Source of the DNA: Mobula hypostoma
Lineage: Eukaryota
Reading direction: 5' to 3'
NCBI RefSeq assembly: GCF_963921235.1
Contig: NC_086097.1
Location: 47,494,001 to 47,558,000 of the forward strand
Length of the DNA: 64,000 bases
In this document: positions 40,681-46,197 of the stretch, piece by piece
Layout: every line of letters starts with the position of its first letter
Position numbering within the stretch: position 1 is the first letter of the stretch
The notes under the pieces: model-generated
Told to the model about the DNA's origin: nothing
Seen by the model: only the letters and a program-made list of their open reading frames with translations
The model's database searches: none
Made by a program: the position numbers and the translations under genes

Positions 40681-41290
40681 TTCATCCAATTTATTTTCTA
40701 AATCAGTGCCTGCTCAGGAGTTGCAATGCCTGTCCGTCCACCTTCTCCCAGCACCCAGGGGCCAAAACAGTTTTTCCAGGTGAAGTGGTTATTTGCCTGC
40801 ACTTTTTCCAGTATGTTCATTTGGTGTTCACCGTTTGGCCTCTTCTGTATTAGAGAAATTGAATGCAGATTGATTTATTAATTTGCAGAGCATTTGCAAT
40901 CAGTTTCAGGAGTGACCCTGGCTTTCAAGTTGCTTGCTACTCATTCAATGACCCATTTTTGTCTGTGGTCTCCTGCATTTTTGAGGTTCAATGCAGGCTA
41001 GAGGAATGACATCACATCTTCCATTTGTTATATTGTAGCTGCAGGATTCTGTTGAATTCTCCAGCTTTGGGTAACTTGCTTTTTCTTTCTGTCTGCTTCA
41101 GAACTACCCATTATTGCCAGTTAGCTATCTTGCTCTTCATTTTTCCCCTCATTAATGTTAGCCTGGTCTAACCAATTATTAGCAACATCACAGCACAGTA
41201 GAGCTAATAGGACTTTATGTTTCAATCTCTGTAAGTCGGCACTCTCGATGTTGGCAGTGGGCTTGGAGTGGTGACAAGGAGGGTAGGTAC

Positions 41291-41351
41291 CTCATCGGGG
41301 TCATTAGGTGGGCACCCTCCTTTGACGTTTCGTTGATAAGCCCACGACGTC
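41291..41351 (-). ncRNA. Putative rearranged hammerhead ribozyme, copy 1
   Basis: - strand GACGTC GTGGGC TTATCAAC GAAACGTC AAAGGAGGGT GCCCAC CTAATGA CCCC GATGAG: stem III GACGU/ACGUC, stem I GUGGGC/GCCCAC, intact GAAA, core CUAAUGA (mutated). Confidence 0.55.
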
Positions 41352-44300
41352 TCCAGAGGGCTCGATGCTACCTGGTGTCCCTGATACACCCCCCCCCCAC
41401 CCCCAGTTCCATACGCTCCTGTCTTCATCTTGCAGCCCAGTTGTTGTCTTTCCTTTTAATCCAAATTCATTTGCTGCTTCTGCTACATTTGACAAGGACT
41501 TGATTGCTTGTTGGAGTGAATAACCCCTCACCCCCATCTTCTTCAATAGACTAGTTGTAGATGTAGCCACGAATCCCCTGCATCCCACTTCTACAGGGAA
41601 AATCTTGGTCTTCCAGCCGTTCTGGGCAGATTCAGTTGCCAGTTCAGAGTACTTGATCTTTTTCCTCTCATAAGCTTCTTCAACTCCATCTTCCCATGGT
41701 ACTGTCAATTCCACAATATACGCCAGCTTGGCTGTTGTGGACCACAGGACCACGTCTGGCTGGAGTGTTGTAGCTGCAATGTCTGGGGGGAAACAAACTT
41801 TTTTTCCAAGTCTACATCCATTTTCCATTACTGAGCAACCTGCAGAATGCTTACCTCTTTTGATGTTATGTGGTGCTCTGGAGGTTGGCCTGCTGGTACA
41901 AATCGTATGATGTGAATATTTCTTGCCGATGTTTGTGGGAGAGCATTTGTGGTGATTTGCCTCTGTTCCAAGATTGATCTCAGCTGTCTGAGAACTTGGT
42001 TATGCCGCCAAGTGTACTGCCCCTGGCTGAGGCTCGTGGTGCATCCTGTTAAAATGTGCCTTAGTGATCCAGGTGCTTGACAAAGAGAACAAGCGGGGTC
42101 TTCTCCTCACCACTGGTTCAGGTTCTGGGGTGTGGGTAGGAGGTCATAAGTAGCTCTGATGACAAAACTTAGCTGAGATCCCTCCATCTCCCAGATGTCA
42201 CGCCAGCTGAGTTTCCTCTTTTCCAGGCTCTCCCAATTAGTCCATTGGCCCTGCTTGGATATTGAGATGGCCCTGGCGTGTCAATCTGCCTCTTCCTGTC
42301 TTCTCACCTCCTCCACCACAAGCCGTCTCTTCTGCAGTGATGTTGCCTTGTGCCATTAAGGAGACTTTGGGACGAGCCCGAGCCCGGCTCTCCCAAGTTG
42401 GACTTGACCAACTACATCCCTGAAGCGAAGAGCAGGCTTAGCACTCTGAATGGCTTCAGATGGGCTCCACTTCCTCCCCGTTACCACACGGGGGGAGGGG
42501 GGCCGCTGTTCAAATAACAGTATCTTCAGATTCAGTGAGGGTCATGACCAACCTTGCTTTGGTGCATTGAATTCTTCCACAAGACTTGCAATTGGTAATT
42601 CTAATTTGCTGTTCCCGTACAGTCCAACAGGACATTGTGGAAGTCCAAGCCACTGTTTCACATGTGTGCTGATCACTCTTTTGAGCTTTTCCACCTTGTT
42701 GATGGGGATTTCCTACACTGTTGAAAGTCACATGAATCTTGGGAGTATGCCGAACTGGATGCACTACAGCTGGAGTTTTCCTGGCAGCCAGGTCTTGTTG
42801 ATGCGAGCTATCTACATGATGGTATCTTTTTTGAGTTGTTTAAACTGCTCGGTGTCCTTGAGCTTAGCATCATACCATCGGCCCAAGCTCTTCACCGGCA
42901 TTTCTGAAACATTTGGGACAGGTGTTCCATCAATATGAAATCTTTGATTCTATGACGTGACCTTTGACAATGGAGATGCTTCTGCACTTGCTGGGCATGA
43001 TCTTCATCCTCGCCCATGTGATGTTTTGATGAAGCTTTTCCAGAAGTCTCTTGGTGCAGGGGATAGTTGTCGTCAGTATTGTTATATCGTCCATATAGGT
43101 GGTAACCATTGACCAAACTGTAGCCGTTTTCCCCCGGCAACATGTTTTGAGGCTCAGATAATGAGCTCCATTGCCATAGTGAAGGCCAATGGGGAGATGG
43201 TGCACTCCACCATGATGCCTACTTCCAGTAGTTGCCAAGCTGTGGTGAAGTCTGATGTTGTGAGACAAACTTGCATATCCTGGAAGTAGTGTTTTACCAG
43301 ATTTGTTATTGTTGCAGGCACCTGAAAGAATTCAAAAGCAGTCCACAGTAGGGAATGAGGAACTGATCCATTGGTGTTGGCCAGGTCGAGGGACAAGACA
43401 TGCAGATCCTTTCCTTCTTTCTTAGCCATCTGGATTTGATGCCATATGATGCTGGTATGTTCAAGGCATCCCGAGAAGCCTGCTATGCCAGCCTTTTGGA
43501 TTGACGTATCAATGAAATGGTTTTGTTTCAGATACTTCGTAAGTCTTTGTGCCAACATGCTGAAAAAGATCTTGCCTTCTATATTCAGGTGGTTTATTTG
43601 GCGAAACTGTTTGATGGTGGACGAATTCTTTTCTTTTGGGATCAGAACTGCCCCCGCTCTTCTCCAGGCTTTGGGGATCACTTACTTTTCCTACGCAACT
43701 CTCATGTTTCTCCAGAAAAATTTCAGAACATCCGGGGCATTCTTGTAGACACAATATGGAACAGCGTTAGGGCCTGGCGCTGATGCCGATCTTGCCTCCT
43801 TCACCTCGCTCAGCCTGGCTGATGTTAAGCTGATGTTGTGAGGTGAGATTGGTGGAAATGTCAGCTGGGAAAAGTATCAGTTCATCTTTTAGCTCAGCAG
43901 TGTGGATGGTTCTGAGATGTCTTTCAATCTCTTCTTTTGATACTTTCAAGGATCTGCTTTTCTCTTTCGTGAAAATGCCTTTCACATATTTAAAGGGATC
44001 TTTGTGGAAGCTTGTTCTTGCTTTTTCCTTCTTTTTGCATCGTTTCCTTAAATTCTCCGCTCTTGTGCAGTTTCGAGAGCCTCTGTTTTAGGTCCTCTTG
44101 AAGGAGGTTGATGCCCTCCCTTTCTTCTGCTGTTGCTTTTTTCCATGACTTCCTCAGGCCTCTTCTTTCTTTAACAAGTTGTTGGATTTCCTGGAGATGA
44201 TGGGATTTGGGGGGGGAGGAGGCATAACTTTCCTGCTGACTCGTTTCCTTCACTCCAAATTTCTCCTTTCTGTAGCTGTAAATCAGGTTGCCCATCTTCT

Positions 44301-45098
44301 CCAACTCCTTTTCTGCTGATCCCTTGATGCCACTTAAGATCAGGCTCACATCTGCACTTCTTGCTGTTAGACTTTGGCCATTTCACCAACGGCCTACGTC
44401 CTTGCATGCTCTCCACTTCACGATGTGCCTGGCTGTGCCTTGGACTACTGTTTGTGCCTGAAACTTCTTTCACATCCCGTAGGATGCTGATACTCTGCGG
44501 ACTGTGGGTTTCTTCCTGCTACTGAGTTTCATCTTACTGATTTGACCTTCCTTTTAACAGAATCTGGTCAATACGGGGCCCTGGGTTGGAGGTTTTCAAG
44601 CATTTCTTCCGTCCTTGATGAATTTTAAGACCATGAGTTGATGTTAAATTAGTCCAGCCACACCTACAGGTGTGAAGAACGTGTCCAGTTGCTGGTTTCT
44701 CAAGAGTATTGCCACTTTGATTCATTGTCGTGTCCATGCCAAGGTTCGTTACCGGGAGGTCAGTCAGAGAGTCTTCTTGCACCCCTGCTCTCGCAGACTC
44801 TGGGGGTATACTTCTCTTTAAACTTTCCATAGCCAAGTGAGGGTGGCTCTTGTGCCCTGACAAGGTGACGGAGCCTGCTGTTATGGGTAGCTAGCCCATA
44901 ATAGCCCCGTTGGGGTCTATTTCCTCCTGTCAGCTGTCACATGGTCTTTTCCCTTGTTGTCAGCTGCACTTTCACAGCCGTCACTGGTTTTCTCCCAGAT
45001 CAGTAGAGCTAATAGGACTTGATGTTTCAATCCCTATGATAAGTCGGCACTCTCGATATTGGTAGTGGGCTTGAAGTGGTGACAAGGAGGGTAGATAC

Positions 45099-45162
45099 CT
45101 CATCGGGGTCATCAGGTGGGCACCCTCCTTCTTTGACGTTTTGTTGATAAGCCCACGATGTC
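45099..45162 (-). ncRNA. Putative rearranged hammerhead ribozyme, copy 2
   Basis: - strand GACATC GTGGGC TTATCAAC AAAACGTC AAAGAAGGAGGGT GCCCAC CTGATGA CCCC GATGAG: intact CUGAUGA; GAAA changed to AAAA and GUC to AUC, both at CpG sites. Confidence 0.55.
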
Positions 45163-46197
45163 TCCAGAGGGCTCAACGCTGCTACCTGGTGTCCCAGATA
45201 CACCCCCCTCAGTTCCATACCCTCCTCTCTTCATCTTGCAGCCCAGTTGTTGTCTTTCCTTTTAATCCAAATCCAATTACTGCTTTCTTCTGCTGCATTT
45301 GACAAGGACTTGATTGCTTGTTAGAGTGATTAACCCCTCATCCCCATCTTCTTCAATAGCTAAAGTATGTGGCTTTTAACTGTCACATTAACTCATTTGT
45401 CCTTCCCCTACTAGATATTTTTGCTTATTTATATCCATTCCTTCCTCACTTTCTCCGTCCCCATTCTGACAAAGGGTCTCAGATCTGAAATGCTAACTCA
45501 TATTGCCTGTCCTGCTGAGTGAATATACATGGAAAGTCTGTACCAGGTGGGGGTGAGACCACACTTTGAGGACTGCAAGTCTCAATCTCCGTATTTTAGG
45601 GAAGTTTAGACTTGTATAAGAACTTTCAATTCTCATGCTTCTAAGATAAGAAATGGGAATGCTTTCTAATTGCAGGTGTTAAGTTTTATATGTCATTGCT
45701 AAAATAATGCAGCAACAAGAATTGGACTTGGGCCGATAAAGGGGATAGTAACATTTAAGCCATACAAGTGTGAGTCAGTGATCTTCTCCAATAATAGTCT
45801 AACCAACCCTTTTCATCCACATAGTCCCTCACTCCTCTCCATCCACACTCCTCCATTATTGCATTCAATGCCATGATACTACAAAACCCCACCATTAACA
45901 TCCTTATGTGTCATTATTAACCATACTTCACTACCTTATCTACACAAATATTGAGCAGAGACTGGGCAATGCCTTCCAAACCTTCAGGGCAAGAGTGTAA
46001 GTGGAAATTCTAGGCTTATTGTATTCAGCTTTGAAGGTCTATCCATTTACGTCAAAGTAACCAGTTACACTCACCACCTTGGACCTTAATTCCCTCCAAC
46101 TGAAAAGTACATTGCAGCCTGCGGGACTCATTACTAAATTCTCTCCAAATTCAGACAACTTGATTTTTCTGTTTGTTTCTGGACTAACTGTTGGTAC

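Follow-up and report, generated by a model that had tools for sequence, protein, structure and literature searches.

The stretch of DNA analysed here (the window, 64,000 nucleotides of contig NC_086097.1 of Mobula hypostoma) carries on its minus strand a decayed element body, which starts at about position 44999 and is located between two tail units, both of which are 3′ tails of one repeat family (table 1). RVT_1 and a PD..ELT..K restriction-like C-terminus were detected in the element, and 108 C-terminal protein relatives of about 1,150-1,200 amino acids come from fish, sturgeon, lamprey and amphioxus. Judged by these sequence features, the carrier is probably a HERO-like non-LTR retrotransposon of the R2 superfamily, with a reverse transcriptase (RT) and a restriction-like endonuclease (RLE). 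By homology with its relatives, the ORF ends in ...NWAAR and the stop codon is the TGA at 41427-41425. A 231-codon open frame of copy 1 (41304-41999, minus strand) enters the motif described below and stops in its CUAAUGA; this read-through is due solely to a frameshifting indel near 41470. The 3′ flanks vary from copy to copy, and a site-specific insertion target was ruled out, the sequences 3′ of the copies being unlike one another; non-specific insertion agrees with the description of HERO in the accessible text of Kojima & Jurka (2015). A SINE-like head on the short copies was also ruled out, their 5′ flanks being unrelated. Copies end in ...UAGCUCUACU (41188-41200 in the window, minus strand), and additional CTACT or GATCTACT units often separate this end from the unrelated flank; they resemble short repeats of the tail or microhomology where priming takes place.

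The motif is located in the 3′ UTR. In copy 1, positions 41351-41276 of the minus strand read GACGUC GUGGGC UUAUCAAC GAAACGUC AAA GGAGGGU GCCCAC CUAAUGA CCCC GAUGAG GUACCU ACCCUCCUU; copy 2, which lies 3.8 kb upstream of copy 1 on this strand, has CUGAUGA, but AAAA and GACAUC. The repeat family is abundant: in the 3.48 Gb genome the terminal 31 nt of the tail are matched 1,044 times (at most 1 mismatch) and a 69-nt core is matched 712 times at up to 3 mismatches, 40 of them exact, with no match to the reversed control in either search. MAFFT alignment of 30 + 30 genomic copies gave the family form GACGUC GUGGGC UUA UCAAC GAAACGUC AAAGAA GGAGGGU GCCCAC CUGAUGA CCCC. Since this form is intact in genomic copies, the CUAAUGA, AAAA and GACAUC of the window are private mutations. 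In Logan contigs from four runs with four other organism labels, position 41305 is C on the plus strand, which restores CUGAUGA, at nearly all depth. Copy 1 carries a change of G5 to A (CUAAUGA), a 3-nt deletion and one change in strand IIa, and a deletion of GAA in the spacer between stem III and helix K; in copy 2, G12 (45142) and G16.2 (45159) are changed to A. Both window copies appear to be inactive, mutated relics. The original prediction had described a hammerhead core with a 5-bp stem III, a 6-bp stem I, GUC, GAAA and CUGAUGA, arranged in a non-classical order (S block, G block, then CUGAUGA) in the 3′ UTR of a retrotransposon, the consensus being intact and each copy mutated. All of this agrees with the letters of the window, with the RVT_1 and restriction-like endonuclease regions of the body, and with the aligned copies and near-exact cores of the genome.

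Table 1. Features of the putative ribozyme motif and of its carrier element (positions in the window; roles of strands as predicted)
Feature	Position	Strand	Remark
Copy 1, whole motif, P0a to P0b	41297..41394	-	covariance model R1 match 41295-41372, 45.1 bits
Copy 1, P0a, GGGG within an expanded G run	41391..41394	-	pairs with CCCC 41300-41297; homology to P0 of relatives
Copy 1, hairpin Hp, abuts G10.1	41366..41390	-	family form GGUGUAUCUGG GACG CCAGGUAGCACC
Copy 1, strand IIa remnant UCGA	41362..41365	-	family form GUUGA, first base = G10.1
Copy 1, Ka (GCCCUCU)	41355..41361	-	5′ strand of the tying helix K
Copy 1, stem III 5′ strand GACGU + C17	41346..41351	-	predicted cut between 41346 and 41345
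Copy 1, stem I 5′ strand GUGGGC	41340..41345	-	positions 1.1-1.6
Copy 1, stem II 3′ strand UCAAC (11.5-11.1)	41332..41336	-	3-nt linker UUA from stem I
Copy 1, G12 A13 A14, then stem III 3′ strand ACGUC	41324..41331	-	A15.1 onward
Copy 1, Kb (GGAGGGU)	41314..41320	-	3′ strand of helix K, directly 5′ of Ib
Copy 1, stem I 3′ strand GCCCAC + C3-A9	41301..41313	-	CUAAUGA here, CUGAUGA in the family
Copy 1, P0b (CCCC)	41297..41300	-	immediately 3′ of A9
GAUGAG...ACCCUCCUU	41276..41296	-	stem II strand and clamp strand of the original prediction
Copy 2, whole motif	45105..45208	-	R1, 48.1 bits; IIa GUUGA intact 45177-45173, CUGAUGA intact 45115-45109
Copy 2, predicted cut	between 45157 and 45156	-	
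Kink-turn-like junction	45165-45163, 45134-45129	-	A3 columns 23-28, 65-69
Tail unit of the full-length element	41197..41549	-	last ~30 codons, ~230 nt 3′ UTR, end ...CUCUACU
Decayed element body	41550..44999	-	RVT_1 pieces + C-terminal restriction-like endonuclease region
5′-truncated tail unit	45002..45359	-	directly upstream of the full-length body

Relatives of the element were retrieved with an alignment of four C-termini (A1), which yielded 80 metagenome loci (L073-L152) of 42-70% amino-acid identity together with their downstream DNA. Most of these loci have CTGANGA after the ORF at a nearly constant distance. Parsing for helices showed one common plan in 45 loci, in which the partner of stem II lies upstream and is directly followed by the partner of helix K, and the order S block, G block, CUGANGA is kept in all parsed loci. 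The helix parser used a limit on the gap between Ka and IIIa, and the plain MAFFT alignment of its 45 instances (A2) is pre-selected by the parser; therefore the covariance model R1 was built from A2 with only helices K and III as structure. It was searched against the window and the 80 loci, and the matches form alignment A3, which is not pre-selected and contains 65 distinct rows. The search gave 68 matches: one in each of 66 of the 80 loci, all on the ORF strand and just after the ORF, and two in the window. Counted over the 68 loci having at least 200 nt downstream, matches are present in 61. One metagenome contig (9,102 nt) holds two members of the clade, L101 and L102, head to tail and about 3.7 kb apart, each with its own covarying putative ribozyme.

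The letters of a hammerhead core are conserved throughout A3. The G block consists of G12 (61 of 65 rows), A13 and A14 (65 of 65 each) and A15.1 (64 of 65); U16.1 is present in 63 of 65 rows, and the A15.1-U16.1 pair is U-A in 62 of the 65 rows and in all 45 rows of A2. Position H17 is C in 28 rows, U in 23, A in 14 and G in none (n = 65). From C3 to A9 the counts over 64 rows are 60 for C3, 64 for U4, 63 for G5, 63 for A6, 62 for G8 and 63 for A9, and N7 is unconstrained (U 31, A 14, C 14, G 5). G10.1 is found in 64 of 65 rows and C11.1 in 58, with U in another 6, and the two positions pair as G-C in 57 rows and as G-U in 6; the strand that carries G10.1 is located upstream and not after A9. 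The core is fully canonical in 50 of the 65 rows, and the remaining ones look like decayed copies. Spacing is also constrained, as the distance from G10.1 to A9 is 66-76 nt in 64 of 65 rows (the remaining row is ended by the contig end) and the linker between stems I and II is 2-9 nt long, mostly 3 or 5, and falls within 0-8 nt in 64 of 65 rows.

The helices are supported by paired changes. In A2, 87.0% of the cells are paired versus 63.5% in shuffles, with none of 500 shuffles as high, and the covariation score is 0.633 versus 0.199 in shuffles (0 of 500) and 0.08-0.14 with slid partners. The alignment without pre-selection gives almost the same picture, with 87.4% of the cells paired versus 64.5% in shuffles and again 0 of 500 as high. 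Stems I and II, both of which are outside the structure of R1, are 84.5% and 93.4% paired in A3, and both sides change in all six pairs of stem I and in four of the five pairs of stem II; the same holds for five of six pairs in stem III and for seven of eight in helix K (81.4% paired). In the window family GUUGA pairs with UCAAC, which gives G10.1-C11.1, and GCCCUCU pairs with GGAGGGU. Locus L079 has GAUGA/UCAUC in place of GUUGA/UCAAC, a double change inside the closest subclade. A second GCCCAC (in CCAAGCCCACUGCC; 41254-41259, minus strand) occurs about 50 nt downstream of the first and is conserved in the family; it could be an alternative partner of the stem I strand GUGGGC.

Two further helices surround the core. 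In 46 of 65 instances the base that precedes G10.1 is the last one of a hairpin (Hp) of at least 5 bp, and in these 46 the ten bases after A9 and the ten bases before Hp, compared in fixed register, are 87.4% paired (helix P0), whereas shuffles reach 52.9% (highest 58.9%) and slid partners 26-37%. A9 is followed by P0b and G10.1 is preceded by Hp, and the two nucleotides are neighbours solely across the junction. P0, Hp, stem II and the core meet without an unpaired base, and they thus form a perfect four-way junction at the place of the usual A9-G10.1 bond. The base after A9, which is part of P0b, is C in 28, U in 25, A in 8 and G in 3 rows of A3. That the G10.1-C11.1 pair is conserved while the first pair of P0 varies hints at a continued stacking of stem II under A9-G12. 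With GGGG/CCCC, the window family has a P0 of only 4 bp; the P0 of L097 and L102 has 10-15 bp.

A kink-turn has a 3-nt bulge followed by tandem G-A and A-G pairs, with GA on the opposite strand beside the Watson-Crick stem. The junction between stem III and helix K shows GA on the 5′ side of stem III, with a 3-nt bulge and then GA on the strand opposite. This pattern is present in 37 of 64 A3 rows, 34 of which have a bulge of exactly 3 nt, and the other 27 rows have other junctions or are decayed. A small extra hairpin, GCAG...CUGUAU, was seen by eye about 15-40 nt after P0b; it is conserved in many distant relatives (e.g. L097, L099, L105, L125) and absent from the window family.

On this evidence the chain order would be 5′-P0a-Hp-IIa-Ka-(n)GA-IIIa-H17|Ia-linker-IIb-GAAA-IIIb-spacer-Kb-Ib-CUGANGA-P0b-3′. 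Stem I would continue directly into stem II through the short linker, helix K would bind the distal ends of stems I and II to stem III at its distal end, and the chain would enter and exit via P0 at the four-way junction of P0, Hp, stem II and the core between A9 and G10.1. Cleavage is predicted after H17 (the 41346/41345 and 45157/45156 sites) by the usual hammerhead chemistry, in copies with the family form. The assignment to the hammerheads is based on conservation, covariation and position. None of the hammerhead models of Rfam 15 matched in the window at the gathering score, in 41100-41600 at E≤10 or in 10 of the loci at E≤1. A classical hammerhead using the second GAAAC (GGGAUUGAAACAUCAAGUC) was considered and rejected by eye, as stems I and II do not form.

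Several features had been drawn otherwise in the original prediction, which paired UUAUC with the GAUGA after CUGAUGA as stem II, closed the linker by a 9-bp clamp of AAGGAGGGU with ACCCUCCUU, regarded the G10.1-C11.1 pair as missing and gave the motif a length of 82 nt. Both pairings exist in the letters, but the conserved stem II is formed by UCAAC and the upstream GUUGA (positions 45177-45173 in copy 2 and, in damaged form, 41365-41362 in copy 1), which lies outside those 82 nt, and GGAGGGU has its conserved partner in the upstream GCCCUCU and not in the 3′ flank. The pair held to be missing is supplied by the same GUUGA strand, and the motif is about 100 nt long. In the relatives, stems I and III and the core letters are kept, but the partners first drawn for stem II and the clamp are not clade-wide, and a stem II placed after CUGAUGA is ruled out by the relatives in either register. 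As for the strand order, plain A-C-B was correct in being non-classical; with Hp and P0 placed around the A9/G10.1 junction, the topology would therefore be a circular permutant of type SGC instead.

Non-circular permutations of the hammerhead, which the original prediction mentions as reported, are indeed in print, with metatranscriptomes as the only source: type-SGC hammerheads (the HRIMA-1 motif and variants) have been described and validated by Eckert, Friedrich, Weinberg & Weinberg (NAR 2023, PMC10085705). Type SGC consists of S, G and C blocks, its stem I is connected with stem II by a linker of about 3 nt, and an additional helix joins the other sides of these stems; all 583 examples are metatranscriptomic, and none is from the genome of a known organism (PMC10085705). 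The present motif is alike in its core letters, in the order of S before G before CUGANGA and in its size of about 80 nt. The 1.x strand runs into the 11.x strand through a short linker (typically 3 nt in type SGC, 2-9 nt here), and the extra helix joins the distal 2.x and 10.x ends, its 5′ strand abutting Ib. In the window family the linker UUA and the 13 nt from IIIb to Ib are both inside the type-SGC limits (0-8 and 0-15). Unlike here, IIa of type SGC directly follows CUGAUGA, and the molecule ends at stem III and K3′, whereas in the present motif IIa-Ka is upstream of the S block and joined to it via 2-3 nt. The RNAMotif descriptor of Eckert et al. places the stem II strand directly after CUGAUGAG or CUGAUGAUG, and this is the only descriptor line that the window family does not satisfy; the join of A9 to G10.1 is taken as necessary by these authors (PMC10085705). 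The present motif is open at exactly this point, where P0 and the hairpin make the four-way junction, against the assumption of a 'block C', and it is found in retrotransposon DNA copies of an animal genome. Topologically, as far as its sequence can tell, the motif is a type-SGC hammerhead in circularly permuted form, broken inside 'block C': read as a circle the order equals that of type SGC, the ends being shifted from stem III and K3′ into block C. Full-text searches of literature outside the subscription journals turned up neither a hammerhead in elements of the HERO, NeSL or R2 type nor this topology. To our knowledge, there is no natural or engineered hammerhead in which the chain is broken between A9 and G10.1, and the strand order appears to be new to the literature.

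Taken together, we consider it probable that the motif is a conserved hammerhead-type ribozyme of about 100 nt, located closely behind the stop codon, in the 3′ UTR of an RT/RLE non-LTR clade, with self-cleavage predicted from its core. Partial hammerhead look-alikes without stem II are, by a rough estimate, expected occasionally over very many windows, and together with the lack of an Rfam match this might point to a chance resemblance in a GC-rich, structured UTR. Such a coincidence is hardly credible, as position, core and six helices are conserved in 66 of 80 independent relatives and the shuffled and slid controls are far lower. More serious, but still improbable, is the idea that the motif descends from a hammerhead and now serves as a 3′ UTR binding site for the RT of the element in target-primed reverse transcription, with no cleavage in vivo. 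Not a single copy begins at the predicted cut, the templates that were retrotransposed had all remained uncut at the motif, and R2-type proteins are described as binding pseudoknotted 3′ UTR RNA (accessible text of PMC12222951). However, the letters that have been kept reflect the needs of catalysis and not those of folding (H17 is never G; G5, G8, G12, C3, A13 and A14 are near-invariant; N7 is free), and in a mere binding site one would not expect the hammerhead rules to have persisted over a range of 42-70% protein identity.

The active fold could also be the plain type SGC of the original prediction, a possibility that we regard as very unlikely. Stem II would then follow a CCCC bulge and consist of UUAUC/GAUGA or, with an A-A mismatch, of UCAAC/GAUGA, and the clamp would be formed on the 3′ side. 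Both pairings are available in the window family, the clamp there has 8-9 bp, and the arrangement matches the order S-G-[K5′-Ib-CUGAUGA-IIa-K3′] in the accessible portion of PMC10085705; moreover, the downstream segment resembles a repeat of IIa-Ka, which could provide a second fold or act as a switch against cleavage. On the other hand, a clamp of 8-9 bp is confined to the window family and L079, and it shrinks to 4-6 bp in six of the seven nearest relatives with enough sequence (in L084, the eighth, the sequence stops 2 nt past A9). Covariation with IIb is lacking for the downstream GAUGA: L079 has UCAUC as IIb and GAUGA upstream, yet AAUGA downstream. The plain fold lacks a G10.1-C11.1 pair beside the core, and its 4-nt insertion after A9 fails the RNAMotif descriptor, whereas the upstream partners of stem II and helix K covary throughout the clade. 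The segment 41276-41296 (minus strand) has the look of a pseudo-repeat of IIa-Ka that is specific to the lineage, and it may offer an alternative for pairing. In the window family, where P0 has 4 bp, a stronger competing helix of 9 bp could hold Kb off Ka.

If the motif is a self-cleaving ribozyme with the permuted topology, its role may be sought in the arrangement of the copies. Among 24 full-length elements, 22 are preceded by a tail piece, and nine of these pieces hold the whole motif; a tail piece before the body in so many cases means that the template RNA rarely ends at the unit boundary, and the tail-body junctions point to template jumping or to multimeric or circular templates. The 5′ end of the body (UCUGGGAGAAAACC...) follows the 3′ end of another tail (44993-45010 in the window, minus strand; loci L032-L042 and L153-L164). 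The upstream tail pieces begin at scattered positions, and six continue into an upstream ORF. In 13 of 55 relatives the ORF of another element starts 149-518 nt after the motif. None of the 24 upstream tail pieces starts at the predicted cut, and neither does any of 30 copies (the first 30 by position, on contig C1, of the 1,044 3′-end matches). By a pattern count, a purine precedes G1.1 in 2 of 324 copies, against 322 with a pyrimidine, and both are substitutions in copies that continue upstream. Every insertion longer than about 150 nt derives from a template that was uncut at its own 3′ UTR motif.

It is possible, although we would put it somewhat below an even chance, that the motif cuts multimeric or read-through transcripts of head-to-tail arrays and frees unit RNAs, which are perhaps ligated into circles. 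As no copy starts at the cut, the cut RNAs would be uncopied or re-ligated, or the motif would have another role. A wider reading, which we offer only tentatively and think rather doubtful, is that a whole chordate-wide clade of RLE LINEs would have had this undescribed hammerhead with a second junction as its ancestral processing ribozyme, which would turn arrays into unit RNAs, unit RNAs into circles and circles into templates for rolling-circle target-primed reverse transcription. The second junction would consist of the linker between stems I and II together with the connection of stems II and I to stem III via helix K, often with a kink-turn-like loop. Such circles would account both for the 22 of 24 read-ons into a tail and for the complete lack of starts at the cut. 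The stop codon lies inside Hp, 7-19 nt before G10.1, in 23 of the 55 relatives with an open frame; a terminating ribosome would consequently unfold the ribozyme, which hints at a coupling to translation.

The role in processing would resemble that of the hammerheads of Penelope-like elements and retrozymes, reportedly described by Cervera & de la Pena in 2014 and 2016 and by Lunse et al. in 2017, or that of the R2 HDV-like ribozyme. With the former the present motif would share the position in the terminal repeat or tail of a retroelement, the head-to-tail or partial tandem copies and the proposed processing of multimeric transcripts. However, those hammerheads are said to be of the classical types I and III, often minimal and active as dimers, and their hosts to have a GIY-YIG endonuclease or none instead of a restriction-like endonuclease. 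The HDV-like ribozymes located 5′ in R2 and other non-LTR elements, reportedly the work of Eickbush & Eickbush in 2010 and of Ruminski et al. in 2011, are likewise self-cleaving RNAs of the same element superfamily and are said to release the element RNA from a co-transcript. They belong to another ribozyme class and are located at the 5′ junction, and R2 copies are said to begin at the cut, whereas none do so here. At the 5′ end of the present body no HDV-like ribozyme was matched by Rfam at E≤10; the fold of its first 141 nt is mildly stable (z = -2.2). The discontinuous hammerhead in rodent Clec2 3′ UTRs, which Martick et al. reportedly described in 2008, is also a 3′ UTR hammerhead with parts outside one simple hairpin-closed unit, but it is said to keep the classical strand order with a very long loop, whereas the strand order is altered here.

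The motif was seen in the genome of Mobula hypostoma, in contigs from four related organisms and in those of metagenomes; the relatives from fish, sturgeon, lamprey and amphioxus are protein relatives of the carrier element. In our assessment from sequence it appears to be a genuine, conserved hammerhead type with a new topology and in a new setting. If this is true, hammerhead wiring extends beyond the six 'block' orders, and a four-way junction can replace the supposedly obligatory join of A9 to G10.1. The existing descriptors and Rfam models miss the motif, which therefore matters for ribozyme searches, and it is of relevance to ribozyme engineering as well. An SGC-like hammerhead would thereby be documented for the first time in DNA from a known organism, with hundreds to thousands of copies in one genome. 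For the R2 superfamily it would be a ribozyme of a second class, located 3′ instead of 5′. Finally, it connects RLE LINEs to the hammerheads and the tandem-copy habit of Penelope-like elements and retrozymes, and with this link the production of the RNA template in this family of elements becomes a directly testable question.
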